Positions 13,809-60,445 of a stretch of 64,000 nt of DNA are shown here, one piece after another. The stretch is from assembly GCF_004010195.1 (NCBI RefSeq), contig NC_057751.1, forward strand, positions 13,404,711 through 13,468,710, in the 5' to 3' direction. The notes beneath the pieces were generated by a model, which did no database searches, had not been told where the DNA came from, and saw nothing but the letters and a program-made list of their open reading frames with translations. The number at the start of each line of letters is the position of its first letter. Position 1 is the first letter of the stretch. Source of the DNA: Chiloscyllium plagiosum (lineage: Eukaryota). The translations under genes and the position numbers were made by a program.

Positions 13809-13945
13809 TAAGAAATAATTAACAACCTTGCTGGAAAGGAACTTTTGAGAAATACTGAGCAGAATGTGATAGAATTGTGCAGTAAGCTGAAATGTGATGT
13901 GGTTCATTCTGAAAATGCTGACCATGTGGGAGGCACAGTGGCAGT

Positions 13946-28109: not shown

Positions 28110-29289
28110 TGAGTTTTATAAAGAAATGACAAAGGGGATTGATGAAGGCAGAACCGTGGACGCTGTCCATATGGACTTTAGCAAGGCATTGGACAAGGTT
28201 CTGCATGGTAGACCGGTTAACAAGGTAAGATCACATGAAATACTGGGAGAACTAGTGATTTGGATACAAAATTACCTAGAAGGTAGGAGTCAGAGAGTGG
28301 TAATAGAGGGTTGGCTTTTGAACTGGAGGCCGGTGATCAGCGGTGTGCCAAAGGGATGGGTGCTGGGTTCACTGCTTTTTGTCATTTCTAGAAATGATTT
28401 GGATGTGAATATAGGAAGAATAGTTTGTAAATTTGCAGATGATACCAAAATTGGTGGTGCAGTGGACAGCAAAGAAGGTTCCCTCAGAATACAACTGGAC
28501 CTGATCAGTTGGGCCCGTGGGCCGAGGAGTGGCAGATGGAGTTTAATTTAGATAAATGTGAGATGCTGCAATTTGGAAAGGCATATCAGGGCAGGACTTA
28601 GACAATTATTGGAAAAGTCCTGGGGAGAGTTGCCAAACAAAGAGACCTTGGAGTGCAGATAGACAGGGCGCGAAAGAAGACGTTTGGTATGCGACCCTTG
28701 ATTGGTCAGTGCACTGAGTACAGGAGTTGGGAAGTCATGCTGTGGCTGTACAAGTCATTGGTTCGGTCACTTTTTGAATACTGTGTTCAATTCTAGTCTC
28801 CCTGCTATTGTAACGATGTTGTGAAACTTGAAAGGGTTTGGAAAAGCTTTACAAGGATTTTGCCAGGTTTGGAGGGTTTGAGCCATAAGGAAAAGGCCGG
28901 GGCTATTTTCCCTGGAGCGTCAGGGGCTGAGGGGTAACCTCATAAGGGGCATAGATAGAGTGAATAGTCAAGGTCTTTTCCCCAGGGTGGAGAGTCCAAA
29001 ACTAAATGGCATTGGTTAAAGGTGAGAGGGAAAAGATTTAAAAGGGACCTAAGGGGCAACTTTTCACACAGACCGATGGTGCGTATATGGAATGAATGGG
29101 AGAAAGTGGTGGAGGCTGGTCCAATTGCAAAATTTAAAAGGCATCCATATGGGTATATGAATAAGAAAGGTTGAGAGGGATATGGGCCAAATGTTGGCAA
29201 ATATGATTAGATTAACTTAGGATATCTGGTCAGCATGGACGAGTTGGACTGAAGGGTCGTACTGTACATATCTATGACTCTATCTGATG

Positions 29290-35589: not shown

Positions 35590-36545
35590 CTGGATGTGAG
35601 CATAAGAGGAATAGTTAATAAGTTTACAGGTGACACCAAAATTGGAGGTGGAGTGAACAGTGAAGAAGGTTACCTCAGATTACAACAGGATCTTGATCAA
35701 ATGGGCCAATGAGCTGAGGAGTGGCAGATAGAGTTTAATTTAGATAAATGCGAGATGCCGCATTTTGGGAAAGCAAATCTTAGCAGGACTTATACATTTA
35801 ATGGTAAGGTCCTAGGGGGTATTGCTGAAACAAAGGGACCTTGGAGTGCAGGTTTATAGCTCCTTGGAAGTAGAGTTGCAGGCAGATAGGATAGTGAAGA
35901 AGGCGTTTGGTATGCTTTTCTTTATTGGTCAGAGTATTGAGTACAGGAGTTGGGAGGTCATACTGCAGCTGTACAGTGCATTAGTTCGGCCACTTTTGGA
36001 ATATTGCATTCAATTCTGGTCTCCTTCCTATCGGAAGAATATTGTGAAACTTGAAAGGGTTCAGAAAAGATTTACAAAGATGTTGCCAGGGTTGGAGGAT
36101 TTGAGCTATAGGGAAAGGTTGAATAAACTGGGGCTGTTTTCCCTGGAGTGTCAGAGGCTGAGGGGTGACCTTATAAAGGTTTATAAAATCATGGGGGGAA
36201 GGGGGGGGCATAGATAGGATCAATAGACAAAGTCTTTTCCCTGGGGTAGTGGAGTCCAGAATCAGAGGGCATAGGTTTAGAGTGAGAGGGAAAAAATATC
36301 CAAGAGGCAATGTTTTCACACAGAGGGTGGTAAGTGTACGAAATGAGCTGCCAGAGGAAGTGGTGGAATCTGGTACAAATGCAACATTTAAAAGGCATCT
36401 GGATGGGTATATGAATAGGAAGGGTTTGGAGAGATATGGGCCTGGTGCTGGCAAGTGGGACCAGATTAGTTTGGGATATCTGGTCGGCATGGACGGGGTG
36501 GACCAAAGGTTCTGTTTCCATGCTGTACATCTTTATGACTCCATA
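35590..36545 (+). mobile_element. CR1 LINE 3' part
   Basis: RDLGVQV..LYSALVRPLLEYCIQFWSP..LERVQKRFTKMLPGL; FTQRVVSVRNELPEEVV. Confidence 0.93.
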
Positions 36546-38030: not shown

Positions 38031-38597
38031 TGTGACTTTATGATGTGTGTTTCATCCTGGTTTCTTTTAGAGACAGATTGAGGCATGAGTGTGACAGTCT
38101 ATGAGAAGGTAACTAACTTGTGGGGCTTTGGGGACTTTTAAAAAAAGTTGTAACAATAGAAGCAGCCTGAGTGGGTGTGGTCAAGCGCTCACAGATCCAG
38201 AATGTTTAGTTAGCTTCCAGCAGTTGCTGTTGGGGTCTTGAAGGAGTGGAAGTTATTCTCCCACTCTTGATTTCAGCAAAAAGCTGGAGGTTCTCTTCCT
38301 AGGCTGCCAGACTGCATGTGAGATAAATCAGTATTCTGAATTTGCCTTTTGCCAAGTGATGTTTATGGTAAGTTACTATGTTGGAACAGTTAATTAGTAA
38401 CAGCTACGAGATGTACTATACTGTTACATTTTCCAATGGAGTTAAGTTATTCCAAGTACTTCTTTCTTTTGGTGTATTTTGACTGTAGTATTTGAATAAA
38501 TTGTGTTTTGCTTCATGTCAAGTAGTTGAACCAACCAAATTGAATCTGGAACACAGCACCTGACATTTACCTTTAAAATAACAGAAGTTATGATCGA
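38031..38597 (+). mobile_element. LTR fragment
   Basis: Starts TGTGAC, has AATAAA at about 38495; 3' part resembles 2530-2714; truncated by CR1. Confidence 0.5.
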
Positions 38598-39550
38598 GAC
38601 TACCTTGATGGTATTAGTAATAACATTAGCAAATTTGCTGATGATACTAAGCTGGGTAGCAGGGTGAAATGTGATGAGGATGTTAGGAGATTACAGGGTG
38701 ACGTGGACAAGTTAGGTGAGTGGTCAGATGCATGGCAGATGCAGCTTAATGTGGATAAATGTATGGTTATCCACTTTGGTGGCAAGAACAGGAAGGCAAA
38801 CTACTACGTAAATGGAATCAATTTCGGTAAAGGGGCAGTAGAGAGAGATCTGGGTGTTCTTGTACACCAGTCGATGAAGGTAAGCATGCAGGCATAGCAG
38901 GTAGTGAAGAAGGCTAATAACATGCTGGCCTTCATAACAAGAGGGATTGTGTACAGAAGCAAAGAGGTTCTTCTGCAGCTGTACAGGGCCCTTGTGAAAC
39001 CACACCTGGAGGACTACGTGCAGTTCTGGTCTCCAAATTTGAGGAAAGACATTCTGGCTATTGAGGGAGTGCAGTGGAGGTTCACGAGGTAAATTCCTGG
39101 AATGGCGGGATTACCTTACATTGAAAGACTGGAGCGTCTGGGCTTGTATACCCTTGAGTTTAGAAGACTGAGAGGGGATATGATTGAGACATATAAGATT
39201 ATTAAAGGATTGGACACTCTGGAGGCAGGAAACATGTTTCCGCTGATGGGTGAGTGCCGAACCAGAGGACACAGACCATTTAGGACAGAGATGAGGAGAA
39301 ACTTCTTCACCCAGAGAGTGGTGGCTGTGTGGAATGCTCTGCCCCAGAGGGCAGTGGAGGCCCAGTCTCTGGATTCAGTAAAGAAAGAATTGGATAGAGC
39401 TCTCAAGGATTGTGGAATCAAGGGTTATGGCGATAAGGCAGGAACAGGATACTGATTAAGGATGATCAGCCATGATCATATTGAATGGTGGTGCAGGCTC
39501 GAAGGGCAGAATGGCCTACTCCTGCACCTATTGTCTATTGTCTACCTTCT
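38598..39550 (+). mobile_element. Young CR1 (HER1-like) LINE 3' part
   Basis: KFADDTKLG; WQMQLNVDKCMVIHFG; LYRALVKPHLE; RRNFFTQRVVAVWNALP; TATTGTC tail. Confidence 0.93.
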
Positions 39551-39574
39551 TAATATATCTTGCGGAACATCTGG

Positions 39575-40745
39575 TCTGTTCCATAACACTGACGCTCCAG
39601 GGAAAAAGGCCTCAGCCTATTCAACCTCGTCCTACAACTCAAACTCTCCAGTGCCAGCGACATTCTTGTAAATCCTTTCTGAACTCTCAAGTTTATCAAT
39701 CTCCAATATTGAAGGGCAACTAGAATGGCATGTGGTATTCTAAAAGTAGCCTCACCAAAGTCCTGTACAGCTGCAACATGACATCCTAATTCCAACGATT
39801 AATGTATTGACCAAAGAAGACAAGCGTGCCAAATGCCTTCTTCACCACCCTGACTCCCTGCAATTCAACTTTCAAGGAACTGTACACCTGAATCTTGAGG
39901 TTTCTTTGTTTGGCAACACTCCCCAGGGTCCTGCCATTAATTGTATAAGTCCCGCCCTGGTTTGCCTCACCAAAATGCAATACCTCTCATTTATCTAAAT
40001 TAAACTCCAACTAGCACTTCTCAGCCGATTGGCCCATCTGAGCAAAGTCCTTTTGTATTCTAAGATAATCTTCTTCACTGTCCACTAAACTACCTAGTTT
40101 GGTGTCATCTGCAAAGTTACTAACCATATCTCTTATATTCACATTCAAAGCATTTATGTAAATGACGAAAAGCAGTGCTCCAGGCACCTATCTTTGTGGC
40201 ATATTTCTGGTCACAGGCTTCCAGTCCAAAAAGCTATCCTCTTTTAACCAAAAAATACAAGCAGAAAACTCATGTCCAGCCTCCCCCTCCCCACTATTGC
40301 AACACCGCCCCTGTCAGACACTCCTAAGTCAAGAACATTATCAGGTACAGAGTAAAGTTCAATCCACTCTTTTAAAGCAACCCCTCTATCACCATCCTCT
40401 GTCTTCTTCCTAAAAGCCAATTTTATGTCCAATTGGCTAGCTCCCCCAGATCCCGTGGGATGTAACCTGCCTAAGTAGTATGCCATGCGGGACCTTGTTG
40501 CATGCTTTGCTGAAGTCCATACTGACAATGTCTACCACTCTGCCTTCATTAATCTTCTTTGTCACCTCTTCAAAAAACTCAATCACATTAGTGAGACATG
40601 ATTTCCTCTGCACAAAGCCATATTGATTGTCCCTCATCAGACCCTGCCTTTCCAAATGCATGTAAATTCAGTACCTCAGAATCCCCTCCAACAACTTACC
40701 CAACACTAATGTAAGGCTTACTGTCTGTAGTTCCCTGGCTTTTCC
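39575..40745 (-). mobile_element. CR1 LINE RT fragment
   Basis: QYGFVQRKSCLTNVIEFFEEVT..DFSKACNKVPH; MHFGEANQG. Confidence 0.9.
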
Positions 40746-41867
40746 TTACAGATTTTCTCATCTTACATCTAACAGGTTTGAGATGTGGACCAATGTGGAA
40801 GAGAGTGAGGTCCGTAGAGAAGATGCAAAAACTGACCATTGCACGTTGGTACGTGTGTGTGTGTGGAATGAACTGCCAAAGTAAATGATGGATGCAGGTA
40901 CAGTTACAATGCTTAAAAGACATTTGGATAAGTACATGAATAGGATAGCTTTGGGCCTTATATGGGCCTAACACAGGCAGGTGGGTCTAGTTTAGTTTGG
41001 GAAAATAGTCGGCATGGACTGTTTGGCCCGACAGGTTTGTTTCCATGCTGGATGACTCAACAACTCTTAATCATTTGGCAAAACAGGGCTACACACACAA
41101 TTCTGAAGGAAATAGTGTTGAACATTGTAGAGGCATTGCTGGTGATTTTTCAGGAGTCTCTGGAATCCATAAGGGTCCCAGAGGACTGAAAAACGACTCA
41201 TATTTAAGAATTGAGAGAGGCAGAAGACAGGAGACTATAGGCCAATAAGGCTGACCTTGGTCATGGGTAAGACTTTCGAGTCCATTATTAAGGATGAGAT
41301 TGTGCAGTATTTGGAAATGCATGCTAACATAGGGCTGAGTCAGCATGACTTTGTCAAGGTGAGGTCATGCCTGATGAATCTGTTAGAATTCTTTGGTAAC
41401 ATAATGAGCTAGTTAGACAAGGAACAGCCCATGGACATGATCCATTTGGATTTCCAGAAGGTCTTTGACAAGGTGATGCACAGGAGGCTGCTAAATTCCA
41501 TAAAAGCCCCTTGATGATAGGTGCAATGTACTGGCATTGATAGAGGGTTGGCTGACTGGCAGAAGAGGTCTTGGTCAGATTGGTAGCCAGTGACGAGTGG
41601 AGTTCCACATGGGTCAGTGTTGGGACCACAACTATTTGCATTATACATAAACGATCTGGATGAAGGAACTGAGGGCATTGTTGATAAATTTGCAGGTGAC
41701 ACAAAGACAGGTGGAGGGATACATGGTGCTGAGGAAGTGGGGAGACTGCAAAAGGACGTGGGCGGGCTAGGACAGTGGGCAAAGAAGTGGCAGATGAAAT
41801 ACAAAGTGGGGACGTGTGAAGTTATGCACTTTCATAGGAAGAATAGATAAGTGGACTATTTTCAAAA

Positions 41868-43301
41868 TGGGTGGCACTGGAAAAGTACAGCAGGTCAGGC
41901 AGCATCCGAGGAGCTGGTGTTATGGACCAGGCCAGACACCCTCAAAACACTTCAAGGAAGTAGACCAGATCCTAACTTTGCTAGTTGTTTTAAGTAGATG
42001 GGAAAGATGCAGCATGTCAAACCACTTAGTTTTAAACAAAACAGAATTTATTTACAAGACTACCGAATGAAACACAAACAAAAGAGAACAGAATGCTGAA
42101 TAACTTAATCTATCTGAAAACCTAACAGATCATCCCAACTTAATGATGCTGTTCCAAATACTTGCAAAAATTCCCATAAACAACCCTTGGCACAAAAGGT
42201 AAAATCAAACACAGGATCATACAGGAGACATATCACAGAGAGAGGAGGATCAGCATTGACCTGTTTCTTTGGGGTCCTGCAGCTTTTACAACTGCTTAAC
42301 TGCTTTCAGTGAATAGCCAGAGTGCCAAAAATCAAATCAAACCAGAGAAAAGCTGAGCTGGAAGAACTGGTGTGTGTTATAAACTTGAAAGCCTTTTTCC
42401 CTGAGGCAGTATCTGTTAGCTACAATCAAATTGGTCCTAAAACCCTTCAACTTAGACTTTTTGGAGTCTGTGTCTTTTACGACCTTTCTGAAAAAAAAAC
42501 CAAGGACAACATACCCTTGTTAAAGGAGCAGCATCATCGCACAGGAGAGTTGATATTTCGGGCATAAACCCTTCATCAGGAATGTGGAGGGGGAAAGAGG
42601 ATTAGAGATAAATAGCGGGTGGAGATGGAGGTGGGGCGGGGGGTAAGGTAGGTGATAAGGTGGATGCAGGTGGTTAGGTCAGTGGGGAGGGTGGAGCGGA
42701 TAGGTGGGAAGGAAGATCAACATGTAGGACAGGTCAACAGGGTGGTGCCGAGTTGGAGGTTGGATCTGGGATGAAGTTGGGGGAGGGAAACTGATGCTGA
42801 TGCCGTGTGTTTGAAGGGTCACAAGGTGGAAGCTGACACGTTGTTCTTCCGGTTGGCGAGTGGATTTGATTTGGTGGTGGAGGCGGCCCAGGACTTGCAT
42901 ATCCTTGGGGGCATTTAAATCGTCGGTCACAGAGCAGTGGGGTTATTTAGTGTGTGTGCATCCCAGAGATGTTCCCTGAAACGCTCTGCGGTTTGGCATC
43001 CTGTCTCCCCGATGTACAGGAGACCACATCGAGAGCAACGGATGCCCTAGGTGAGGTGGGTGGATGTGCAGGACAATCTCTGCCGGATGCGAAAAGATCC
43101 ATTGGGGCCCTGGATGAAGGTGAGGGGGGAGGTGTGGGCAACCTATTTTTACGCAACCTGTGCTGTGTGTGGGGGGGTGGGATGATAGGGGGCCCAAATT
43201 GACAACTATCCTGCTCCTCAGATGCTGCCTGACCTGCTGTGCTTTTCCAGCACCGTCCTTTTTGACTCTGACTCTCCAGAATCTGCAGTCCTCACTTTCT
43301 C
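41868..43301 (-). mobile_element. Penelope-like element (family A): inverted terminal repeat, GIY-YIG 3' region, direct terminal repeat
   Basis: TSD CTATTTTC(A/C)AAA at 41856-41867 and 43302-43313; minus strand encodes C..CGLLYIGETGCQTAERFREHL (GIY-YIG) around 42960-43045. Confidence 0.85.
41918..42541 (-). mobile_element. Solo LTR nested in the PLE
   Basis: Same family as 5938-6537; C(T/A)GG 4-bp TSD at 41914-41917 and 42542-42545. Confidence 0.85.
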
Positions 43302-43711
43302 CTATTTTCCAAACAGGAAAAGGTTTCAGAAATCTGAAGTGCGATGGGACATTGGGAGTGCTAGTTCAGGTTTCTATTAAGGTTAACAATTAGGTACTTT
43401 TAGTAGTTAGGAAGGCAAATGCAATGTTAGCATTCATTTGAAGAGACACAAAATGTAAGAGCAGAAATGTACTGCTGAGGTTGTATAAGGCTCCAGTCAG
43501 ACTGCACTTGGAATATTGTGAGCTATTTCAGGCCCCATATCTAAGGAAGGATGTGCTGGCTTTACAGGGGGGATGGGGGGAGGGGTGGGGAGGCGTCGCC
43601 ATAGGAGGTTCACAAGAATGATGCTGGGGATGAAGGACTTGTCACATGAGAAGCGGTTGAGGACTCTAGGTCCATACTCAATGAGTTTCAAAGGACGAAT
43701 CACCGAATTAT

Positions 43712-44349: not shown

Positions 44350-46410
44350 TACTTCGTTATTTTCTATAACTCCTTCAGAATCTGCAAATTTGTAATCCAT
44401 ACCAAGCATGGCTGAAGAGGTCACCCATTCAGTCTGGTTCCCATTCTGTCAACTTGTTGTTTTTCAATCCTTATCAATAATCTTCCCAGGGTTTCTCTAT
44501 TCTTTAAGCTCCTATCTCTTATGTCTCATGAATTGAGACTGGTTTCCGACAACCTCTTATATTTTAAGGCTAGCCAAATTCTTTGGTGAACTTGGCTTTA
44601 AATAAAGCTTTTCTGCCGAGATGTAATTCAATTCAAATGCTGCAAACAAGTTGAACTAACGATAGCTGCTTCCTGAGCTGAGAGCTGATCATTTCTTTGT
44701 GATGAGACCTTCGGATACTACCAAGAACTAATTGATGTGGAATATATCATACAATTATCTGCAACAAATTCTTAACATGAACAATCCATACAAATGTAGA
44801 AGACAATTCACAATTGGGCTGATCTGCCAACATTTGATGAACCATTCTATTTGTTACTGCATTAATTCCTTATACAACTACTATTGCTAAAAGTTCATAT
44901 TCTTGCACGTACCTCTAAATTAATCATTAACAAATTCTTCACCATGAACTATGAGAAATGCTATCAAACATTTAAACTTGAACCCTGTCCAATGTCCCAT
45001 TACCTTGTCTGCAATTATTTTGTCTCTAGTATGTATTACTATTGACTAACAAAATCCAGCTGCCCAATCTACAAAAAGGAAAAGTGTTTTTTTTCCCTTT
45101 ATCCCAGGTTTTTAAATCCACAACGCACAAAAACAGAAATTGCTGGAAAAACTCAGCAGATCTGGCAGCATCTGTGGAGAGAAAACAGAGTTAACAGATC
45201 TTGTTTTATTTCCTAAAATCCATTGCCACCATCTCATTGAAATCTCTTGCTGAGAACAGACAATGATGGTGGCCTTAATTCCTATAAGTCTGATATTTAT
45301 CATTTATATCTCTTCTATGAGCTTATTGTACGATGCAACTATTATTCCTGCAGGTTAGAGTGGTGCTGGAAAAGCACAGTCGGTCAGGTAGCATCCGAGG
45401 AGCAGGAAAATCGACGTTTCGGGCAAAAGCCCTTCATCAGGACTGAAGCCTGGGAGGCTCCCTGCCTTCAGTCCTGATGAAGGGCTTTTGCCCAAAACAT
45501 TGATTTTCCTGCTCCTCGGATGCTGCCTGACCTGCTGTGCTTTTCCAGCACCACTCTAATCTAGACTCTGATTTCCAGCATCTGCAGTCCTCACTTTTGC
45601 CTCTTATTCCTGCATATTTTATTTTAAAAATTAACTTTCTCGATGATGAGTGGATAAATTGCCGATACAACTTTTATACAATTGACTTTGTCTTCTAAAC
45701 TTTACCCACTGATTCAATAACACCTCTTCAATTCCTTCTTTTGGAGAGGTTATGTTGAATTAAAGGAGTACCATTATGTCTTGATTCACAGTTTCCAAAC
45801 ACAACATCTTTATTGGTTTCCACATCTATTTCATCCATGCTTTCTTCATTTCTGGCTTGCTTAATGCCCAAGTTATTTCAATGGACACTACATTCAGACA
45901 AATAAAATGATTGATTCTGTCTATTTTTTGAGGAACGACTGCTCCTCAAATATTTTTATATGTTATCATCTCCTACTCTGAAACTAATGTAAGTCTCAAA
46001 TTCCTAAAACTTTGTCCCAAACTTTATTTATGAGAGCATGTAGCTGGCATTTTAGCCAGTCTATTCTGCACACTGTGAATGTGCATCCACTGTCTAGTAC
46101 AGCACAATTGAGACTGCTACCAACACATTCAACAATGGGATGAAACTTTTGATCAGTATAACGCCCTCTCTTTGTTCTGTGTATCTTCTTCTTCTAAATT
46201 TTTCATTCCATGTTTAGTTTTGAAAATTCTATTATACCATTTGGGACTGTTCATGGCATAATGGTATTTTGAATCCACCTGAAACATTCATTGATGACAC
46301 TTTGATATTTCTGGGGTTAATTCTTTTGTTGTATGTCCCCAATTCTCTTCACTTCTCAAAGTTATCTAAAGCATTTTTGATCCTCAGTTCTTTTAGCTAT
46401 AGTTCACCTT
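44350..46410 (-). mobile_element. Decayed Ty1/Copia-type polyprotein remnant (gag knuckle, protease, integrase)
   Basis: NCAVLDSGCTFTVCRIDWL (DSG at 46094-46086); LYRQFIHSS; RFNEMVAMDF; FLIVHGEEFVND*FRGTCKNMN; WIVHVKNLL..PHQLVLG; protease directly followed by integrase. Confidence 0.7.
45353..45603. mobile_element. Fold-back Penelope terminal-repeat insertion (family A), 11-bp TSD
   Basis: About 102-bp arms centred on 45457; TSD TTATTCCTGCA at 45342-45352 and 45604-45614; intact hammerhead core on the minus strand at 45413-45440. Confidence 0.9.
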
Positions 46411-47015: not shown

Positions 47016-48160
47016 AAAGAAAATAGAGTGTACATTAAAATTTCACAATAATTCTAGCCTTTATATCTACACAAGAAAGCAGAAGGTCACCAAGTGACAT
47101 AACTGAAACATTAAGATAAAGTATGCATTGTTTCAACAAAGTTTGCAGATGAACATTAACCAAGCATTGTGTGAAAATGAAAAATGTGGGAGTTCATTGT
47201 GTAAAACAACAGACAGCAGTCTTTGTTTTAAACTATTTTCCAAATACTGGCTAAGTCTAGTTGGAAGTTCTTCAATCTAACATGCCACAATTGCACCAAT
47301 ATTCATATCAATTTCTTCAGCAATTAAAAATAAAGTTAATATAACTCAGCAGAAATAATTGTGCAAGTGTAGAAACTTACATCAGGAATTCCCAATGCAT
47401 GTTATATATAGCAAAATTCTCTCAATCTCGCAGCACATAACATCAATACACATAAACTTAGAGCCAATACAGACAGCTCCATTGGATGTTTTGGATGTTA
47501 TTTAAGCCAGCGTTAGCACTTTAGGAGAAAGTAGGAAGATCCTCAGAAGGAACACGAGTGTAGTACATTTTGAATAGGTATTGTGATGAACATTCATGTT
47601 TCATTATTATTGTTATTATTATGATTTGAAAACTTCAGGTCTGAAGTAGACAGAACCATATATATTGTTATGGGCCAGGCCAGACCCCCTCAAAATATTC
47701 CAAGAAGGTAGCCTAGACCCTACCTTCTTTTTAACTTTAAAAGCAGATATGAAGTGGATATTCCAGGTGTAATGCAGCTGGTCAAACCACTTGACTTTAA
47801 GCAAAAAAGAACTTATTTGAACACCACAGTTGAAACACAAACCAAAAGAAAATGGAATCTAGAACAACAATTCTTGGAAAACTTAACTGACCTGACATAG
47901 CAACTTAACTAAGGAACTGTTTGAATCCCATATCCCATACACACTCTCTTTGGCAAAAAGTAAATTCAAACATAGGTTCTTATAGGGAGGAGAGATTTCA
48001 GAGAGAAAAATCAGAGAAGAATCATCTGTTGAAGCTTGGAGCCTTTCTTTGGTCTGCAGCAGCTTCTCTGCTACAGCTAAACCAGCAGTTTCTCACTGAA
48101 ACCAAACTACAAAAAATCCTGAACTGGGAGAACTGACACTTCCCTGCCATTGTTAAAGTA

Positions 48161-49875
48161 AAACTCACACAACATGTGGTTATAGTCCAACAGGTTTATT
48201 TTGAAAGTACGAGATTTCGAAGCACTCCTTCTTCATCAGGTAGCTAGTGGGGCAGGTTCATAGGACGCAGAATTTATAGTAAAAGATCAGTCTCGTACAA
48301 CTGATGTGATGTATTAAACAAACTTACATACTCTTACACATGATCATACTTGCACACTCATGCGGTCAGTCTCTCATACACGTGCTCTTCTCTCTCACAC
48401 ACACACACATGCTCTCTCCCTCTCTCATAGACACATAGATACTCTCTCTCTCTTCCTCCCCCTCACACACGTGCACACACACACAAATATAAGACTACGA
48501 GGTGAATTTGCATTTGCAGACTTATATTTGCCAGATACATTCTCTTTTGTTCAACATGCACACAATCTGTAGGCAGTCAGTCCATGTGATATGTTTTTAA
48601 ATTCCTACTTTGGAAATAGACAGAACCATATATATTGTTATGGGCCAGGCCAGACCTTAACTATTTTTATTTAGAAGGTAAATGTGAAGTGAATATTCCA
48701 GGTGTGAAGGAGCAACACTTTGAAAGCTTGTACTTTCAAGATAAACCTGCTGGACTATGACCTTGTGTTGTGTGATTTTTACTTTAACAATGGTAGCTAA
48801 TCACACCACTTGGCTTTAAGCAAAACAGGGTTTACTTAAACATTACAGTTGAAATACAGACAGACTGTAACCTTTAATGCATTGTCTGAGCTGAGATGTC
48901 ACCTTTCTTTAAACTGATAAAACTTTAAAAGGTCTCCGGGCTGTGACTTGGAAGAAGTTCTGGGATTTAGGTATTAATCAATCAAAACCTGCATCCCCTT
49001 TCTAAGTGATTAACGATTTAACAGCAATCAAGGTTTGTTCAATACATCACATCAGGACTTATACACTTAATGGTAAGGTCCGAGGAGTGTTGCTGAACAA
49101 AGAGAGCTTGAAGTGCAGGTTCAAAGCTCCTTGAAAGTGGAGTCACAGGTAGATAGGATAGTGAAGAAGGCGTTTGGTATGCTTTCCTTTATTAGTCAGA
49201 ATATTGAGTACAAGAGTTGGAAGGTCATACTGTGGCTGTACAGGACATTGGTTCGGCCACTGTTGGAATATTGCGTGCAATTCTGGTCTTCCTATTGGAA
49301 AGATGTTGTGAAACTTGAAAGGATGCAGAAAAGATTAAAAGGATGTTGCCAGGGTTGGAGGATTTGAGCTACAGGGAGAGGCTGGCAGGCTGGGGCTGTT
49401 TTCCCTGGAACGTCAGAGGCTGAGGGGTGACATTATAGAGGTTTATAAAATTATGAGGGACATGGATAAGGTAAATAGGAAAAGCCTTTTCCCTGGGGCT
49501 GGGGAGTCCAGAGCTAGAGGGCATAGGTTTAGGGTATATGAATAGGCATTTGGATGGGTATATGAATAGGAAGGGTTTGGAGGGATATGGGCCGGGTGCT
49601 GGCAGGTGGGACTAGATTGGGTTGGGATATCTGGTCGGCATGGATGGGGTTGGACAAAAGGGTCTGTTTCCCTGCTGTGCATTTCTATGATCTTTTGAGC
49701 TGTATGACACTCTGATCTTTTACTATACATTTTGTGTCGAATGATCCTGTCCCACTAGTTACCTGATGAAGGAGCAGTGCTCTGAAAGCATGTACTTTCA
49801 AATAAACCTGTTGGACTATAACCTAGTGTTCTGTGATTTTTAACTTTGTCCAGCCCAGTCCAACACCGGCACCTT
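48161..49875. mobile_element. Penelope-like insertion (family B relative) with inverted terminal repeats and nested CR1 and LTR pieces
   Basis: TSD CATTGTTAAAGTA at 48148-48160 and 49876-49888; 48161-48345 is inverted relative to 49700-49845. Confidence 0.8.
49055..49692 (+). mobile_element. CR1 LINE 3' part nested in the PLE
   Basis: LYRTLVRPLLEYCVQFWS; 3' UTR. Confidence 0.9.
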
Positions 49876-50898
49876 CATTGTTAAAGTAGACATTTCAGCA
49901 CCTCTGCCTTCATGACCTCTCTTGAAAAATACCCAAGGACAAAATGACTCTTTTAACATGACAGCATCGTCACAATAGCTTAAGTTTGATTTGTAATTCC
50001 TTATTGTTTATGTTCAGAAGGATGAAAATATAGTTTCATTACATTTTAGATTTTGAGATCCGTGAGAAGCACTGCAGCTTGTTTACATGCATTTGATTGA
50101 CGACTTTTTTAGAAAATCCTTTCGGTGAATAGATTAGTATTTCAGAAAACAAGGGTAGAAGAATTAACAAAATAGGCTATTACATTGCAACAACGTGCCC
50201 TATGATTAAAGGGAGGTAGAGACAGAAACAAGTCTCCTTTCAGTAATAAAGAAAGACCCATCAAGTAGGCTAGTGAGTGGGCAAGTTTCTCTCAGAGAGA
50301 GGAGCAGGTAAGACAGGAAAACCATGTAACAGTGGCAGGGCAGTGTAGCAGTCTCCAACATGATCAGAGCTCAATAAACTGAGACTGCAGTAACCATGGT
50401 GACAACCTCGGATCAGGTTGACATTGTGGCCTCCACTGTTGGTCTTGTCTACTAGGTCTCCACCACACATCCAACTTAACATCCAGGGCAAATGTCAGGA
50501 ATCATGCAGGGCAGCTGAAGACTGATGGAGCTTCTCTGGGCACACAACGGGTACTAAAGTTGGTGCAAAGGCAAGGGATGCTGGTGTGTTCTCAGACATC
50601 GTCTGAGTGGAGGGTTGATCTGGGAACAGCTTATGGTAAGACGAGGCCGGAATCAGATAGAAGGATGCCAAGGGGCAGAGCAAATAGTTAATGAGTCTTT
50701 TGAAAGAAACCACACTGGGCTTCAGGGCAGAATTCTCTCCAAAAAAGCTCAGTGAAACTCAGATATATTTAAAAGAAATATAAGAACGTGCAGTAAGTAT
50801 CAGTACTGTCACCTGTCTATGGGGAATAATTAAGAGGTTCTCTGGACTTTATCAAATCAAAAAGAAATCTGGGCTGACATGACACCAATTTTTAAAGT

Positions 50899-51205
50899 TC
50901 ACTTGAGAATGTAACTTTTAAAAAAGTTCTGGGATTTACATATGAAAGGACTGAAACCAACATGGTCATTCTAAAAGTTGAGAGACTTAACAACAATCCA
51001 GGTCTTTTTCAATGTATAATTTCAGTTACATCACACTGCAAACGTTTGCTATAAATTCTGTGTCTTAGGATCTTATACTCCACAACCACCTGATGAAGGA
51101 GCAGCGCTCCGAAAGCTAGTACTTCCAAATGAACCCATTGGACTATAACCTGGTGTTGTGTGATTTTTAACTTTGTACACCCCATTCCGGCATCTCCAAA
51201 TCGTG
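50899..51205 (+). mobile_element. About 305-bp non-autonomous Penelope-derived element (family B) with hammerhead motif
   Basis: Homologous to 52805-53080, 54476-55040 and 58713-59047; CAC-CTGATGA-A-GGAGC/AGC/GCTCC-GAAA-GC-TA-GT at 51087-51120. Confidence 0.82.
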
Positions 51206-51258
51206 AATTATGTAATACATTCTACAGATACAAGAAAAAATTCAGCAAGTGTGCCTTG

Positions 51259-53190
51259 TGTTATGATCTCAGCTGATGGTACTACTTGGGCAAGTCAGAC
51301 CCCAGAATGAAATATGGCTTTATCAATCATATGTTTAATTCTATTTTGTTTAGAATATTGACATAATGGTTAGTCAATAAAATATATTTCATATGATGTT
51401 GCAGATGTTCTTTAACAAAATATACAAGTTTATTATGCAAAAAAAAATCTAACCAACGTTTATGTATATTGCAGTTGGAAAGATCTTAACATGCCACAAA
51501 GGGATATAGATAGGTTAAGTCAGTGGGCAAAGATAAGTATAATTGTCTACTTTAGCATAAAGAATTAAAAGGAAACATATTATCTAAATAATGAAAGGTT
51601 GCAGAACTATGAGATGCAGAGAGATGTGGGTGTTCTAGTACATGAATCAGAGATAGTTAGGATGCAGGTACAGAAAGTAATAAGAAAGCTAACAAACTTA
51701 TGTTTTATTGCAGGTGGAATGGAATGCGATAGTGAGGAGGTTATGCTGTGGTTACACATGGCATTGGTAAGACCACATCTGGACTACTGTGTACGTTATT
51801 GATCACTGTCCTTACAGTTCAAAGAAGGTTTACTAAACTAATAGATGGAATGAGAAGATTGCCTTATCAAGAAAGTCTGGACAAGCTGGGTCTGTATCTT
51901 CAGAAATTACAAGAGTCAGAGGTGACTTAATTTACATGTAAGATCCTGAGGGGACGTGACCAGGTGGATGTTTCCTCTCATGAGAAAATCTGTAACGGGA
52001 GATCCTAGAATAAAAAATAAGACGTCACACATTTAAGACAGAGATGGCAAAAAAAATTATTTCAGAGGTTTGTTAGTCTTTGGAATTCCCTTCCTCAAAA
52101 GGCAGCGAATACAGAATCTTGAAATATTTTTCAGGCAGAGGGAGACAGATTCTTGATTACCAAGGGAATGTTTTTTAATCGGGGGTCTGCAGGAGTGAAG
52201 AGTTGAGGTTAAAATCGATCTTACTGATTGGCGGAGAAGGCTCAAAAGGTTGAGTGATGAATTCTTGTTCCTTATACATGTGGTCATAAGTCTGTCACAA
52301 TGTTTTACACTGTTTCACAACACTATCCCTTACAGAGACTAGGTCCAGAGAAATTGTATTACTATCTCAACACTTTTAAGTTACTAGTTAACTGACTCCA
52401 TCCAGTTTCCCTTTTGTGAATTGTAAAGACAACTTTGTGATTCCCCCCTCAAGTCTGATGGCATGAACCTTTCACAAGTCTAATCACGTAAACTTTTTCC
52501 AGTTCTTAACAACAAAGCTCTCCTGGCTTGAAATCTTCAAAAACCAGAACAAAATAAAACACTGCTACTGCAGTGATTAGTTTCCTTTGAACTGAAATGC
52601 ACCCTGCTAAGTGAGAAACCAAAACTGGTTTCTGAACTCAACGAACTAAAACTCTGGTATTTTCTGAAGTGAACTGAAAAAACTATTGCCTTAATGTGTT
52701 TACACAGCTTCCCATAAACACAAAGGTAGAAACATCTTATTCTATTAACACTCCAAAGGTTCTCCCAAGGCCTTGACTTTCATCACATGTTTTCCTGAAA
52801 CAATGTTAAAAATCACACAACACCAGGAAAAAAGTCCAACAGGTTTACTTGGAAGCACTAGCTTTCTTAATACTGCTCCTTCATCAGGTGGTTGTGGATT
52901 ATAAGATTGTAAAACACAGAATTTATAGCCAACGTTTTCAGTGTGATGTAACTGAAATTATATTTTGAAAAAGACCTGGATTGTTTGTTAAGTCTTTCAT
53001 CTTTCAGAATGACCATGTTGGTTTCAGTTCTTTCAAATGTAAATTGCAAAACTTTTTTTAAAAAAGTTACATTTTCAAGTTTCCTGGAACAGTTCATTTT
53101 CTGACCTTTTCTTAAAAAGTCTTCACAGCACTAATCATTTCCATTTGCCTAACTTCTTTAAAACAAGACAAATACACACCGTTCATTACA
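51259..53190 (-). mobile_element. Probable solo LTR interrupted by CR1 (about 51485-52290) and a family B PLE
   Basis: TGTTATGA...ATTACA termini; CTTG/CATG flanks. Confidence 0.5.
52803..53080 (-). mobile_element. Family B Penelope-derived element
   Basis: TSD TTTCCTG(A/G)AACA at 52791-52802 and 53080-53091; hammerhead stem II damaged. Confidence 0.8.
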
Positions 53191-54139
53191 CATGTGAAAA
53201 TGTTACTATGATGGGGAGGGCACACAGGAGGAAAGTGTACTTAAGAGTGGTAAAAGAAATCAAGTGAAATAAAAATCAGAGCAATTCAAGGATCAATCAA
53301 AAATTGAAAATTCAAAAGTTGACATTCCAGTAATAATTTTGCCTCATACAGAAGGTGCTTGAAAAGTTAGATTGAATGTTACGCTATCTCCCAGAAAATT
53401 ATCTCACTGACTTTTGAAAGATATTGCAACCCATCATGCCTCACAAACATCATTACCTGGTGCCAATCTGCTATTTCTTCCCCATACCCTTGCAGAAGGT
53501 TTCAATTCCAAATGATCATTCCAATTCCTTCTTGAATGCCTCCATGACATTTCCAACTAAATACACTGAGCAAGGATTATCTGTAAGGTTATTGTAGAGG
53601 CTAAAAGAGTTGAATCTTTATTTATGATATTTGTAACAAGGCTATTTCAAATAGCTGCTATCTAGTGTAAATACAGTTTGTGTGATTTCCTTTTGAGAAA
53701 CAAGCATTGATGGACTTTCCTAGAAGTACACTGAAAGCCTTTTGGGAATGTATTGTGACTGATTACCATGGTAAACATATTGCAAAAAATTAGTGTCATG
53801 GTCTGTAAAGCCAAGTTTCCCTCCTGGGATCTGAATTGTCCAGTAATACCATCAGCTAGGATGATAGCAGTTTGCTCTGTAATAACATTCATTCCAAAAT
53901 GTGATTTACATGTTAACTCATAAATGATTAAGAATGCATGACTGATTAGAACTATGAAGAAATATTCTGATTGTTATCTTGTCACTGTTTTCACTCATTG
54001 ACCATCTGACCTCTTTATTCCTCATTAAGTGGGGTAAATTCAATGCAAATATTCTTGGCTGAGAGCTTTTATAACATATAAATAACAAAAATGAGCATCT
54101 CCTAATAAGTGTTCAGATAATTTTGTAAGTTCAGAAGTC

Positions 54140-54450
54140 GTTGGAGGAGAAGAAGGCAGTTCAGCTATCAAGTCTGCCCTGCCTTTCAATAAGATCATGG
54201 CTGATCTGAACCTCAAACCATTTTCCTGCTCTTTCTCCATAGCACATGATTCCTTTACTGATTAGAAATCTGACTATTTCAAGCGTAAATTTGCTTAACA
54301 GCCCTCCATGAGAAAGAATTTGACAGATTCACTCCCCATGGAGAGAATAAATTCTTCCTCATCCTTGTCTTAAATGTGAGGCCCCTTATTCTGAGATTAT
54401 GTCCTGTGGTCCTAGACTCTCCCACAAGGGAAGAATTATTCCATTTATAA
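54140..54450 (-). mobile_element. CR1 3' end
   Basis: GESRTTGHNLRIRGLTFKTRMRKNLFS. Confidence 0.8.
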
Positions 54451-54475
54451 TTCCAAGTATAACATTTTTCTTTAA

Positions 54476-55040
54476 GATTTGGAAACACCGGTGTTCAACT
54501 GGGGTGTACAAAGTTAAAGATCACACAACACCAGGTTATAGTCCAACAGGTTTATTTGGAAGCACTAGCTTTCGGAGCACTGATCCTTCACCAGGTGGTT
54601 GTGGAGAATAAGATTGTAAGACATAGAATTTATAGCAAAGGTTTACAGTGTGAAGTAACTGAAATTATATATTGAAAAAGACCTGGATTGTTTGTTAAGT
54701 CTCTCATGTTTTAGAATGACTATTTTGGTTTCAGTTCTTTCATATGTAAATTACAAAACTTTTTTTTCACTTGAGAATGTAACTTTTAAAAAAAGTTTTG
54801 TGACTTACATATCAAAGAACTGAAACCAACACTGTCATTCTAAAACATGAGAGACTTCACAAACAATCCAGGTCTTTTTCAATATATAATTTCGGTTACA
54901 TCACACTGTAAACTTTTGCTATAAATTCTGTGTCTTACAATCTTATTCTCCACAACCACCTGATGAAGGAGCAGCGCTCCGAAAGCTCGTGCTTCCAAAT
55001 AAACCTGTTGGACTATAACCTGGTGTTGTGTGACCTTTAA
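54476..55040. mobile_element. Family B fold-back dimer (about 255-bp inverted arms)
   Basis: 54513-54767 is inverted relative to 54788-55040; degenerate TSD ATTT(T/A)TCTT(T/C)AA at 54464-54475 and 55040-55051. Confidence 0.88.
54957..54991 (+). ncRNA. Minimal type I hammerhead ribozyme motif (family B)
   Basis: CAC-CTGATGA-A-GGAGC/AGC/GCTCC-GAAA-GC-TC-GTG; stem I CAC/GTG. Confidence 0.75.
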
Positions 55041-55455
55041 TTTATCTTCAAAATTTGATTGTCTATTTACATTGGAATTACAAATATTTTATAATTTTGA
55101 AATGTTGAAGTTGCATCATATTCATGATTAAATATTAGCATAATCTTTTCTATTCAATTTTCAAATTCACTTGGCAATGATACAAATCATGCTGAAATCT
55201 GTCAACACATCATGGCCTTTCAGGATATCTCACTTCCACAAAAAAAATTTGAGAAACACAATTTTCTTTTCACAAAAAATGTGCCCGCAAATGAAGGATT
55301 CTATGTAGGGGTACAGATCTTCCATTGTACTATGTTCATTACTGACAACTTCAGAATAACCGATTTAATTGTTAACATTAAGTTTCTGTCTGTTTGTTGC
55401 CTAATTAAATTGACTGATAATTATCTAATTGTTTTCAGTCAGTCATATTTTTCAG

Positions 55456-55616
55456 AAGAAGGTGAGGACTGCAGATGCTGGAGATCAGAGCTTAAAAATG
55501 TGTTGCTGGAAATCAAATGTGTTGATTCCTGAAGAAAGGCTTATGCCCGAAACGTTGATTCTCCTGCTCTTTTGATGCTGCCTGACCTGCTGCGCTTTTC
55601 CAGCAACACATTTTTA
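55456..55616. mobile_element. Fold-back family A insertion with one arm partly deleted, 15-bp TSD
   Basis: TSD AGTCATATTT(T/C)TCAG at 55441-55455 and 55617-55631. Confidence 0.85.
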
Positions 55617-55686
55617 AGTCATATTTCTCAGTCAACAAACCTGCCCAAGCAAGACACCATACTGGCTGATACCAACATGTAGTGAT

Positions 55687-56925
55687 TGTAACAAGGTCAG
55701 CCAGGCGGACATCATAGAATAAGAGTTTCCTTATGGTGGCTGTTGGTCTAATCCAAACAGGGAGCCCTGGATATGAGCAAGAGTATCAGAGGTCCTGGTC
55801 ACTCTGAGAGCTGGTTCTGAGGAAGCTGGATCAGTGCTAAGACCTCTCCACATGTAATTAAGGAGTGACTTGGTGCAAGATACTGGCCTTTGTGCAGCTC
55901 ATTCAGTGGCAATGAGAGCAAAGCACACTCTTGAAGAAATTCACTTGTACAGCAGCCTTTGAGTGAGATAAATACTTCTGGCATCATGTCTTTCTCAGGA
56001 AATTTGACTCATTCAATCCTGTTATCGAAGCATGGGTCCAGTATGTGAAAAGGATGCATTATTGTTTTCTGAACAAATGACATTGGGGCAGATGAGAAGG
56101 CATGGGTAATTTTCCTGATAGTTTGTGGACCTGCACAAGCGGGTTTGGAGGATCCTAACTTTCCCTGAAGCACCAGATAAGAAAACCTTGCAAGAGCTGA
56201 TGGATTTAGTTAAGAAGTATTGTGATTCCAAGCCTCCTCTAATTCTGAGACACTATCGTTTTTCATTCGGCAATTCGAGAACCAGGGAAATCGGTATTTG
56301 GATTTTTGATTCAGTTAAGAATACTGCCAGAGGCAAATGGCTCTCGTTTCATCCTTAATGAGATGCTGGGAGACCATTAGATATGTGGGATTAATGATGT
56401 AACCATCCAAAAGTGCCTACCAGTTGAAGTCCAACTGGACTTCAAACAGGTGCTACTACTGGCTTTGTCGTTAGAAAATGCAGCAAGTGGAGCATGTGAG
56501 TTGCAGGGTATTCTGATGGAGAGGACACTCTCCCCAGTCCGACTGAGCCTAAGAAACACCACTTGAGTTCAGGCAATTGCATCGCCTCACTCAGGACATA
56601 TTTTGAACAGAGGAACTCTAGATAAACCCACAGCAAAACCCCAAAATAAAGCCAAGCCTCAGCCAAACGGTTAATTTTTTTTTTCAGGATTTAGGCCGGC
56701 AAGCCATTGTATTTGCTGCCAGCATATAGACTTGAGACAGCTAAAGAGTCCCACTGGATCTAAACTGAGTAAGAGAACTCATAGACCGGTATCCAACAGA
56801 GTGCACATCCTAGAATATCCACCCATACCTGATTTGGAACAGTTAAATTGCTTAGCAACATCCAAATCAGAACCAATCAAAATAAACATCTGGTTAAATG
56901 GTCACCCAATTCCAACAGAAATATC
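55687..56925 (+). mobile_element. Gypsy LTR retrotransposon 5' fragment (LTR, PBS, decayed gag, start of protease)
   Basis: TG..CA LTR at 55687-55905, then GTGGCAATGAG (PBS-like); PDKKTLQELMDLVKKYCDSKPPLILRHYRF; MLGDH*ICGIND..IQK; PIKINIWLNGHP. Confidence 0.78.
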
Positions 56926-56989
56926 AAGAGGGATATGGTGGCACAGTGGTAATGCCCTTGAACCAGTAATCCAGAAGGTCGAGCTAGTA

Positions 56990-57890
56990 TAACAAATACA
57001 AAATTCTGCAGATTCTGGCGACTGAAAATAATAACAGGAAATGTTTGAGAAACTCAGCAGTTCCAGCAGAAGGGCACCATAGTTAAAGGCAAAAGAAAAT
57101 GAGAGTGGCCGTGATGAAAAGATAAACATGAAGACATGTGTTAACAGCAGATGTTGATGGTCGAAGTCAGCTCACTGAAAGAAAACCCATGCAAATGAGA
57201 CACTGGGCAGGTGTTATGGGGTTGCAAAAATGGAAGACAGAGATACTGACCTGAAGTTATTGCACTGAATATTGATTCCTGAAGGCTGTAAACTGCCTGA
57301 ACAAAACATTAGCTGCTCTTTCTCCAGTTTGCACTGGGCTTCACTGGAACACCGCAAAAAGCCGAGGGCAGAAATTTTAGCTTGAGAGCAAGATAGTGAA
57401 TTGAAATAGCAAGTGGTGGCAAGGTCAGAGTCATTCGTTAGGATAGAGTGGGGCTGATCCGCAAAGTAGTCATCCTGTTTGTGTTTGGTTTCACCAAGGA
57501 AGAGGAGGTTGCATTGTGAATGGTGAATACAAGTAGGTAGATTGAAAGAAGGACAAATAGTTTGCTGCTTCACCTGGAAGATTTGTTTGGGGCGATGGTC
57601 TTGAGGAGGCAAGTGATAAGGGGGCAAAGTATTCCACCTTCCATGATTACACAGGAAGATGCCATGAGGGGAGGGTAAGATGCTTATGGTGGCAATATGT
57701 TGCTGGAGGAAACAGAAATGATAAGAAGGCGATTCTTTGAATGCAGCAGCTTGTGGGTGGAAAGTGAGAATGAGAGAATATATGACTTTTTTTTGAGAGT
57801 GAGGACGAGAACAGAAATTCAGAAAATAGGTCAGGAACAACTTAGGGCTTTGTCAACCATAGTGGAGAGTATTATTTGTTGAGGATAACA
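56990..57890 (-). mobile_element. Penelope-like GIY-YIG 3' region and terminal repeat
   Basis: ORF 57214-57840: CIHHSQCNLLFLGETKHKQDDYFADQ..KLEKEQLMFCSGSLQPSGINI. Confidence 0.8.
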
Positions 57891-58712
57891 GGAAGACTAA
57901 CACAACTTCTTTTAAGCTTATTTAAATGCTAATTTTCATCGACAGCATCTCTCTGCGAGGTGTAGCAAAGTTTCTTTATGCTTACTTCCCAAACACGCAT
58001 GAACTATGCCATCACTTCCCTTTGGCGTCCTGCTTCTATTCTCTCACTCATTACAGGTGAAAATATGAGACATGGTAGAAGCACCCATGCACATCAGCGG
58101 AACACAGACAACAAGGGTGGAAAATGTGAGAGAATGGAATTAAGTCCTTACAGGAAGCAAGGTATAAGAAAGTGTTGTCAATGTAACTGTGGATATTAGG
58201 GGATGGAAGTAGAGAAGTCAAGGAAGAGAAGAAAAGATTCAGAGATGGACTAGGTTGATGGTGAGAGAAGGATGGAGTGTGAAAGCAAAAGCCCAAACTA
58301 ATGCTCTGGGAATACAGGTTCAAATCACAACCACCTCCATGGCAAATGAGGGGGTTTAAATTATATTGTTAAAATCCTCCAATTGAAAGTTGGCAAACTA
58401 TAATCGGTTACTACAAAAACCCATTAATGTCCTTTGGGAAGGAAATATGTTATCCTTATCTAATCTGGCCTACAAATGACTTCACACCCACAACAACGTT
58501 GTATTGGATTAGATTAGATTCCCTACAGTATGGAAACAGGCCCTTCAGCTCAACAAGTCGACATCAACCCTCCAAAGAGTAACCACCCAGACCCATTCCC
58601 CTACCCTATATTTACTCCTGACTAATGCAACTAACACTATGGGCAATTTAGCATGGCCAATTCACCTGACCTGCACACCTTTGGATTTCACAATAAGGAT
58701 GACTTTTAAATG

Positions 58713-59047
58713 TTAAAAATCACACAACACCAGGTTATAGTCCAACAGGTTTATTTGGAAGCACTAGCTTTCGGAGCGCTGCTCCTTCATCAGGTGGCTG
58801 TGGAATATAAGATTGTAAAACACAGAATTTATAGCAAAAGTTTACAGTGTAATGTAACTGAAATTATATATTGAAAAAGACCTGGTTGTTTGTTAAGTCT
58901 TTCATCGTAAGAATGACCATGTTGGTTTCAGTTCTTTCATATGTCAATCGCAAAATGCTTTTTTAAAAAGCATTCTTTCAAACATTGACATTCTTTCAAA
59001 AATTTTTAACTTTGTATACCCCAGTCCAACACTGGCATCTCCAAATC
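58713..59047. mobile_element. Family B insertion: long inverted arm plus short direct 3' terminus, 14-bp TSD
   Basis: TSD ATGACTTTTAAATG at 58699-58712 and 59048-59061. Confidence 0.88.
58762..58796 (-). ncRNA. Minimal type I hammerhead ribozyme motif (family B), intact
   Basis: Minus strand CAC-CTGATGA-A-GGAGC/AGC/GCTCC-GAAA-GC-TA-GTG. Confidence 0.78.
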
Positions 59048-59314
59048 ATGACTTTTAAATGCTCTCTGACATGGCTTGCTAAGCCAGGGATGCCAATATA
59101 AAATCAAAGAATACCATAAAAAAAGGGTAGCAATGGTGCAGAACAATGTCTGATGACATTTGGTAACAGCCATTGAAACCCTGCAGGACAAAACTGTCTG
59201 AAATTTTCTTCACCCTTTAATGCATTTTACAAAGAAAATTTAATTGTATGTTTTTGGTGGTGTTGCCTCAAAACAAAATATTTCAAGGTTTGTGTGAAGG
59301 TCGGCTGCCAATTG

Positions 59315-59882
59315 CAATTGTTGTGGGTATGTTTGCCGAGTGGGATTTTGTTTCACAGACATTTCGTACCCTGTCTAGATGACATCCTCAGTGCTGTGCA
59401 GCCCCTGTGAAATTCTGCTGTACTTTGGAATTTATTAGTTCTAAGATGTCCAAGATTCCATGCAGAGACTGCATGAAACACTATGTAGGATAAACAGACA
59501 GACAACTAGCCATCCGCATTCATGAACATCAACTAGTCACTAAACGCCATGTATTTATACACACACAGAGGACAAGGACCATAAATTCGACTGGGCCAAC
59601 ACAACAATATTAGGACACGCCAAATGGAGGACAGCCAGAGAATTCCAAGAAGCTTGGCACGCACCCACTGACTCCATCAATAAACACATTGACCTGGACC
59701 CAATATACCGACCACTGCAACAAACAACTGGAACCAGCAATCAGAAGCAGCTGAAAGAAATCAAATAAATTCCTGACACAATCAGGAGACTCCAGAGCAC
59801 TGAAGATATCACCAAGAAAGGGGACAAACAAAACATCTGCAAACCAAGTTCCCAGCCACACAAACATAACCACAACAACTGC
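59315..59882 (+). mobile_element. Penelope-like element (family C): inverted terminal repeat, GIY-YIG, terminal repeat
   Basis: KIPCRDCMKHYVG*TDRQLAIRIHEHQ; 59318-59400 is inverted relative to 59795-59880; hammerhead-like core on the minus strand at about 59355-59394. Confidence 0.8.
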
Positions 59883-60164: not shown

Positions 60165-60445
60165 TTCCTTTATGCGCTTTGTCTTGCCTCCGGATGAAGC
60201 ATTGGAGGCATGGCCTGCTTTCTATTTTAAGTGTTGAGGTTTCCTTGGGTTGGTGATGCTATTTCCTGAAATGACATCACCACAGGAAATTACATTACCA
60301 ACCCAAGGTACCCTAAAAACATAAATAAAAAGCGGGCCATGCCACCAGTGTTTCATCCAGAGGCACACTGAAGATGTTACCTAGTATGGTGATGAAACGT
60401 CTAAAAACGAACCTTCCAGCTCAGCGAACAAACCTACATCCAGAA
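60165..60445. mobile_element. Penelope terminal repeat with hammerhead-like core
   Basis: CTGAAGA-T-GTTACC/TAGTAT/GGTGAT-GAAA-CG-TC at 60368-60401. Confidence 0.6.

Follow-up and report, generated by a model that had tools for sequence, protein, structure and literature searches.

We analysed a 64,000-nt stretch of the genome of the shark Chiloscyllium plagiosum (contig NC_057751.1, positions 13,404,711 to 13,468,710 of the forward strand; hereafter the window), in which a repeat family, here called family B, carries a hammerhead ribozyme motif. We conclude, with a probability of roughly 0.85, that this motif is the minimal type I hammerhead of the terminal repeat (pLTR) of a Penelope-like element (PLE), that it is present here as a passenger in truncated, dead-on-arrival copies, and that significant cleavage at this locus is unlikely. 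Eight family B copies (B1 to B8) were identified by self-comparison of the window, all within 48.1–59.1 kb, and the motif was damaged or truncated in five of them, while core and stem II were kept in the other three. The copies show insertion units of the type left by endonuclease-bearing (EN+) PLEs, namely an inverted truncated partner, a single tail and a target duplication. Furthermore, motif and flanks decay at a similar rate, and no purifying selection was seen.

Hammerhead motif of family B

An earlier reading of this stretch, made from its letters alone (the sequence-only reading), had reported three minimal hammerheads in family B, and all three were found again at the same positions (Table 1). 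The sequence CAC-CUGAUGA-A-GGAGC(AGC)GCUCC-GAAA-GC-UH-GUG was re-read in B7 and B8, while in the B4 variant the 3′ strand of stem I is GUA, which reduces this stem to 2 bp. The assignment of these motifs to the PLE-type minimal type I hammerheads was likewise upheld, together with the view that their AGCU stem III can be formed only between two copies.

To describe the motif strictly, we required the full core, a stem II of at least 4 bp, a palindromic stem III and a stem I of at least 2 bp. Seven sites in the window matched this descriptor, three of family B and four of a second family, family A, the hammerheads of which have ACGU in stem III; by comparison, 200 dinucleotide shuffles gave 0.015 sites on average and never more than 1. 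A looser CTGATGA..GAAA pattern was found 12 times in the window, whereas 100 shuffles averaged 3.0 occurrences, with 9 as the highest count. Among the eight family B copies, the core CUGANGA...GAAA...UH with G10.1–C11.1 was complete in three, the AGCU palindrome at 15.2–16.2 was present in six, and the extra A between positions 9 and 10.1 was present in all eight. Stem I of family B is extendable by two further pairs past a C–C mismatch.

Based on the seven strict sites against 0.015 expected, a chance origin of the hammerhead resemblance is effectively refuted. It is also at odds with the fact that three families of the window, with different stem II sequences, have all retained the core together with G10.1 and palindromic pairing in stem III, and with the agreement between the motif and the minimal hammerhead ribozyme (min-HHR) consensus given in PMC4209133. 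Two results point the other way. First, a covariance-model check with the Rfam hammerhead models, which the sequence-only reading had suggested, gave no support: no hammerhead family was matched at E≤10, either in the whole window or in the 151 nt around 54957, presumably because the Rfam models expect a looped stem III. The Rfam scans returned only hairpin matches to microRNA models, located at palindromes and all under the gathering score. Second, the covariation score of stems I and II in the eight copies was matched by 22 of 500 shuffles, a weak signal among related sequences. One pair of stem I is C–G in four of the eight copies, U–A in two and unpaired in two, which amounts to one subfamily event. 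As judged from these sequences, such a compensatory change between two subfamilies would fit selection in active ancestors.

A third hammerhead type, containing an extra U, was observed at 59358–59391 (−) and 60368–60401 (+), the latter preceded by a palindrome at 60185–60365. Its A9-U-G10.1 reads AUG, as in the Poseidon element of the anole, for which a reading frame starting at stem II is described in PMC11167929.

Insertion units and origin of the copies

According to the descriptions in PMC8557442 and PMC3846280, the signature of endonuclease-bearing PLEs consists of an inverted 5′-truncated partner, a 30–40-bp tail on one end and a target duplication. Family B contains three inverted pairs, B1/B3, B6/B7 and B8 with its stub, and the tail, about 35 nt in length, was found on exactly one partner in 3/3 pairs. 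The direct joining of this tail to the end of the element was also detected in other copies, with 12, 6 and 4 contigs at one joint in three public sequencing runs. An exact 14-bp target duplication (58699–58712 and 59048–59061) encloses the unit of B8 and its stub. B1 and B3 together form one 1.7-kb unit with internal fragments resembling a long terminal repeat (LTR) and a long interspersed nuclear element (LINE), flanked by an exact 13-bp duplication at 48148–48160 and 49876–49888, and the single copy B5 has a 12-bp duplication with one mismatch at 52791–52802 and 53080–53091. In total, the target duplication was clear in three of the five units with a 5′ body, weak in one and absent in one, while chance sharing of at least 13 letters between flanks was found in only 3 of 4988 random flank pairs. 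Within the B1/B3 insertion, the 44-nt start of an LTR-like repeat (47643–47686) recurs at 48613–48656 with 97.7% identity, 1 kb off, as if neighbouring DNA had been copied in.

The family B copies would thus be dead-on-arrival products of the reverse transcriptase (RT) and endonuclease of the element. In the mechanism that we propose, after the accounts in PMC11167929 and PMC3846280, a staggered cut of 12–14 bp would be made at an AT-rich site, reverse transcription from uncut RNA would begin at two sites about 35 nt apart, and an early stop would leave a copy that is truncated and in many cases has a head-to-head partner, with the tail on one member of the pair. A tail that corresponds to the stretch between two reverse-transcription starts is described for the anole element in PMC11167929. 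All eight motif-bearing copies of family B span the predicted cut site and none begins at it, indicating that the template RNAs were uncut or religated.

Alternatively, family B might be a retrozyme-like element that is non-autonomous, measures about 270 nt, and is released by its hammerheads and copied via circular RNA, but we consider this very unlikely. Four of the five young copies end 171–197 nt upstream of the core and thereby resemble a defined unit, and animal retrozymes, proposed in published accounts to be derived from pLTRs, are reported there from the one chondrichthyan genome sampled. However, the shared end coincides with an A/T-run palindrome, at which reverse transcription may stall, and B4 and B3 reach further upstream along the same sequence. 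In addition, the cut site is neither the start nor the end of any copy, and the self-comparison of the window revealed no head-to-tail pair of family B, the neighbours being all inverted or dispersed. Small local inversions or duplications were detected at the junctions of these four young copies (50898–50940, 53040–53080, 54750–54800 and 58940–59000).

A coding link for the PLE origin was provided by family A. The family A hammerhead at 42552–42579 (−) follows, at a distance of about 230 nt, a decayed GIY-YIG frame (YIGET at 43016; Pfam E 0.05, under the curated cut-off). The best database match of this remnant (E 2e-14, 67% identity) comes from Chiloscyllium, namely a protein with RT and GIY-YIG matches of its own, neither of which reaches the curated cut-off. 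The remnant and its shark match therefore support a PLE origin of family A, and the same origin of family B is supported by the anatomy that it shares with family A. The parent element probably belongs to the Neptune group of PLEs; the protein matched by family A (P0001) has, by eye, a Cys-rich linker between RT and endonuclease, where the Neptune clade is marked by a Zn-finger-like one.

The features of family B are listed in Table 1. All eight copies are crowded into 11 kb of the 64-kb window, with none in the first 48 kb, which might be due to chance, to local hopping or to insertion into similar sequence. The five young copies differ by 4.4–7.4% from their own majority sequence and the three intact ones by about 4–5%; these three are presumably intact because they are young. 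In B1, both stem III and stem II of the motif are changed, and B3 is interrupted by a LINE fragment at about 49053–49690.

Table 1. Family B copies and their intact or nearly intact hammerheads (window coordinates)
Feature	Coordinates	Strand	Description
B1	48161..48345	-	older subfamily with UAC/GUA as stem I; decayed motif at 48208-48242; tail-less inverted partner of B3
B2	48705..48785	+	short stub, starts inside hammerhead core, within LTR-like fragment
B3	48850..49875	+	older subfamily; motif 49760-49794, U16.1 to A; tail about 49845-49875
B4	50867..51201	+	5′-truncated PLE end; tail about 51172-51201 with 6-nt deletion; 5′ limit approximate
B4 minimal hammerhead	51087..51121	+	core and stem II intact, 2-bp stem I, H=A (after CUA); predicted cut between 51118 and 51119
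B5	52803..53079	-	no tail; motif 52856-52890 dead, stem II 3′ arm replaced
B6	54476..54765	-	inverted partner of B7; tail about 54477-54512; motif 54563-54597, A6 to G and stem II mismatch
B7	54766..55039	+	no tail; inverted partner of B6
B7 minimal hammerhead	54957..54991	+	intact, H=C (after CUC); predicted cut between 54988 and 54989
B8	58713..58990	-	no tail; 5′ limit approximate
B8 minimal hammerhead	58762..58796	-	intact, H=A (after CUA); predicted cut between 58765 and 58764
B8 inverted stub	59002..59047	+	last ~10 nt of the element and tail

Family B is very abundant. In the three public runs, from three organisms, contig depth reached up to millions on the element, against 3–16 on the unique flank, although depth is not copy number; the contig counts of 130119, 94411 and 12680 include a second repeat at 58550–58690 and are not copy numbers either. 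Contigs of one run, possibly of RNA, extend over the element and part of the unique flank, which we do not take as a sign of expression. No match to the family B pattern was found in viral and metagenome contigs.

As for the neighbours of family B, the family A insertion extends over 41856–43309 and comprises a decayed GIY-YIG region at about 43120–42780 (−), an inverted tailed stub at 43195–43306 and a target duplication of 8–12 bp, with an LTR-like repeat (41918–42540) inserted behind the motif. Mini-insertions of family A were observed at 7878–8086, 13682–13812, 21118–21258, 27887–28109, 45352–45603 and 55451–55616. Several of these are palindromic and tailed, and five of the six have exact target duplications of 10–14 bp. 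The one at 27887–28109 is a 99.5% palindrome with two intact back-to-back hammerheads. A start just upstream of the hammerhead fits the family A copies of the window, but not those of family B. LINE-like fragments, which we take to be of the CR1 type, are located at 28078–29283, 35588–36544, 38577–41050 and 49053–49690.

Prospects for cleavage at the locus

In the five young copies, the motif differed from the majority sequence at 10 of 175 positions, compared with 59 of 1086 positions elsewhere in the copies, and five of the ten motif differences formed one cluster in B5. This bears on the idea that the host has retained the intact copies for a regulatory ribozyme function, such as one within an intron. 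The presence of three intact motifs within 8 kb, the confinement of all eight copies to 11 of 64 kb and the domesticated intronic hammerheads described in amniotes would agree with such a role. Nevertheless, we regard it as highly improbable: motif conservation is no better than that of the flanks, no host exon was identified in Pfam scans of 300 window frames, and intact young copies are to be expected from a family so abundant in three organisms.

The sequence-only reading had further proposed that transcripts crossing these copies self-cleave after CUA or CUC when two copies pair. Cleavage at a meaningful rate by this route is, in our judgement, unlikely, even though core, stem II and AGCU are all intact in three copies and PLE hammerheads are reported as dimer cleavers in a review. 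B4 and B7 could pair on one plus-strand transcript, and on a minus-strand one B6 or B5 might in principle be cut by B8, since a dead core does not keep a copy from providing the strand that is cut. B4 and B7 are, however, separated by 3.9 kb, within which two antisense copies lie. A read-through transcript on either strand holds antisense copies, and the duplexes predicted over the motifs range from −228 to −399 kcal/mol (−272 for B8 with B7), the strongest being the hairpin of B6/B7 (−399 kcal/mol), which covers the B7 motif. The AGCU duplex amounts to only −2.5 kcal/mol, and the cofold minimum instead pairs the stem II arms across copies.

Folding of single copies gave a similar picture. In a 111-nt context, stem II was predicted with a probability (p) of about 0.97–0.99 and stem I with a probability of about 0. 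When the RNA ended right behind the motif, stem I reached p 0.56–0.82, which indicates that a co-transcriptional window exists and is in favour of cleavage by paired copies; four bases on, this value fell to 0.05–0.18, and past 68 nt to about 0, where the 5′ strand of stem I is predicted to pair with the end of the element. On these models, the family B copies appear to be poorly placed to cleave, and the lack of purifying selection likewise speaks against cleavage by pairing.

Published tests of related hammerheads showed little activity. Minimal hammerheads had no activity as monomers and low activity as dimers in the assays of PMC4209133, and eight of nine Xenopus dimer elements tested did not cleave, one being active (bioRxiv 10.64898/2026.07.22.740005). 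The anole PLE hammerhead, as reported in PMC11167929, needed the PLE protein, was dispensable for insertion and had no RNA-seq read ending at its cut site. By analogy, the hammerhead of an active family B parent would probably cut long tandem transcripts slowly, either as an AGCU dimer or with the protein of the element.

Several observations weigh against the view of family B as truncated PLE copies with an idle hammerhead. With respect to anatomy, B6 and B7 form a 91% palindrome with only a weak 12-bp target duplication (two mismatches; 54464–54475 and 55040–55051), and no target duplication was found in the flanks of B4. With respect to coding capacity, no Pfam match to GIY-YIG was obtained for family B in 150 of the 155 frames of at least 48 aa past 43.8 kb and 150 of the 211 frames of at least 62 aa before it. 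These 300 frames yielded only RT fragments at 28.1, 38.6, 40.4 and 41.6 kb and weak chance matches, and the scan is insensitive, as the GIY-YIG remnant of family A was also missed by it. A protein search with an 87-aa frame of family B found nothing, and the Neptune label is presumptive, as it is based on the family A match and on a reading of the linker motif in that match.

With respect to decay, the invariant core differed at 1 of 55 positions in the young copies. At the catalytic G12, the share of contig depth with A was 19, 18 and 11% in the three runs, compared with 25, 30 and 12% for decay at C11.1 and 26, 32 and 14% at the loop CpG, all of these being depth shares and not copy counts. 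The loss of G12 was somewhat below that of the neighbouring CpG positions in all three runs, so that mild selection is possible; set beside C11.1 and the loop CpG, the decay of G12 suggests CpG decay with mild protection at most. Finally, the low stem I probability is compatible with cleavage, because folding programs ignore the hammerhead core and Mg2+.

We also considered a model in which the hammerhead is latched off by design. Here, a helix of about 11 bp, formed by the 5′ strand of stem I and C3 with the last bases before the RT start about 60–70 nt behind C3, would keep the RNA uncut. The latch would be released once the tail pairs or the PLE protein binds at the start site, coupling cleavage to retrotransposition. 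The helix was predicted with p 0.92–0.99 in 4/4 young copies folded, 11 of 300 shuffled versions of the downstream segment reached it, and the B3 tail released it (p 0.00–0.01). On the other hand, the overall energy was ordinary (equally low in 99 of 300 shuffles), no release was obtained in the folds with the tails of B4, B6 and B8, release occurred without recovery of stem I, and the older B1 and B3 lacked the helix in the same register. The latch is accordingly a doubtful proposal, although, if true, it would explain a motif that is conserved yet nearly silent. The tail as an on-switch of the ribozyme was rejected, the folding results being inconsistent between copies.

The preferred reading, an idle PLE hammerhead in truncated copies, adds a shark family to the known PLE minimal hammerheads and changes little. 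It touches on the question of what role PLE hammerheads have at all: transposition of PLEs in vitro from uncut RNA is reported in PMC11167929, and one whole PLE clade is described as being without hammerheads in PMC8557442. A very abundant young family with two stem I subfamilies would lend itself well to tests of selection and of protein-assisted cleavage.

Comparison with known systems

Our literature search found no description of this shark family, although the supplements of preprint 10.64898/2026.07.22.740005 and file 1 of PMC4209133 could contain one; cartilaginous fish account for none of the 56 rows of Fig. S3 in PMC4209133. According to Cervera and De la Pena 2014 (PMC4209133), the general features of min-HHRs include an extra base at 9/10.1, the pair G10.1–C11.1 and a palindromic 15.2–16.2, and most occur as solo motifs, in addition to opposite-strand pairs 100–700 bp apart. 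Counted by eye in Fig. S3 of that paper, the extra base is present in 54 of the 56 rows and is A in 30, with A in 10 of the 11 vertebrate rows, and a loopless AGCU is found in five. The nearest row is that of the turtle Chrysemys picta bellii, which has the extra A, a 5-bp stem II, AGCU and CCAAAUAAA behind the motif, all as in family B. Therefore, neither the extra core A nor the palindromic stem III is unusual; the sequence-only reading had overstated both as oddities, and both belong to the consensus of PLE minimal hammerheads. Family B agrees with the min-HHRs of PMC4209133 in its type I topology, CUGANGA with one extra base, G10.1–C11.1, short stem I and AT-rich flank with CCAAAUAAA, and differs from the rows shown there in having stem I and stem II sequences of its own and A or C as the cut-site base.

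The extra A has a further parallel in the (+) hammerhead of chrysanthemum chlorotic mottle viroid (CChMVd), in which the extra A10 is an unpaired A between A9 and G10.1, as in family B. The statement that this base is tolerated there was borne out by the published description, with the addition that it causes a moderate loss of rate. CChMVd differs in that its hammerhead is a viroid ribozyme with an activity described as dependent on contacts of loop 1 with loop 2, none of which is evident in family B.

The insertion units resemble those of EN+ PLEs as described by Arkhipova et al. 2013 (PMC3846280), Craig et al. 2021 (PMC8557442) and Frangieh et al. 2024 (PMC11167929), with a 5′-truncated copy, an adjacent inverted copy at its 5′ end, a tail, a target duplication, an AT-rich site and a palindrome at the 5′ end. 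The target duplications are 12–14 bp in family B and 8–10 bp in the rotifer PLE examples given there. In contrast to EN+ PLEs, no copy of family B in the window extends to an identified coding region. Animal non-LTR retrozymes, as portrayed in PMC7229834 and bioRxiv 10.64898/2026.07.22.740005, share with family B a type I hammerhead within a short non-coding unit related to pLTRs, and are dimer-dependent in vertebrates. Retrozymes, however, form head-to-tail arrays with one hammerhead per unit, whereas family B copies are dispersed or head-to-head and carry tails and target duplications. Family B is thus a further, shark family of PLE minimal hammerheads, a motif type that has already been described.

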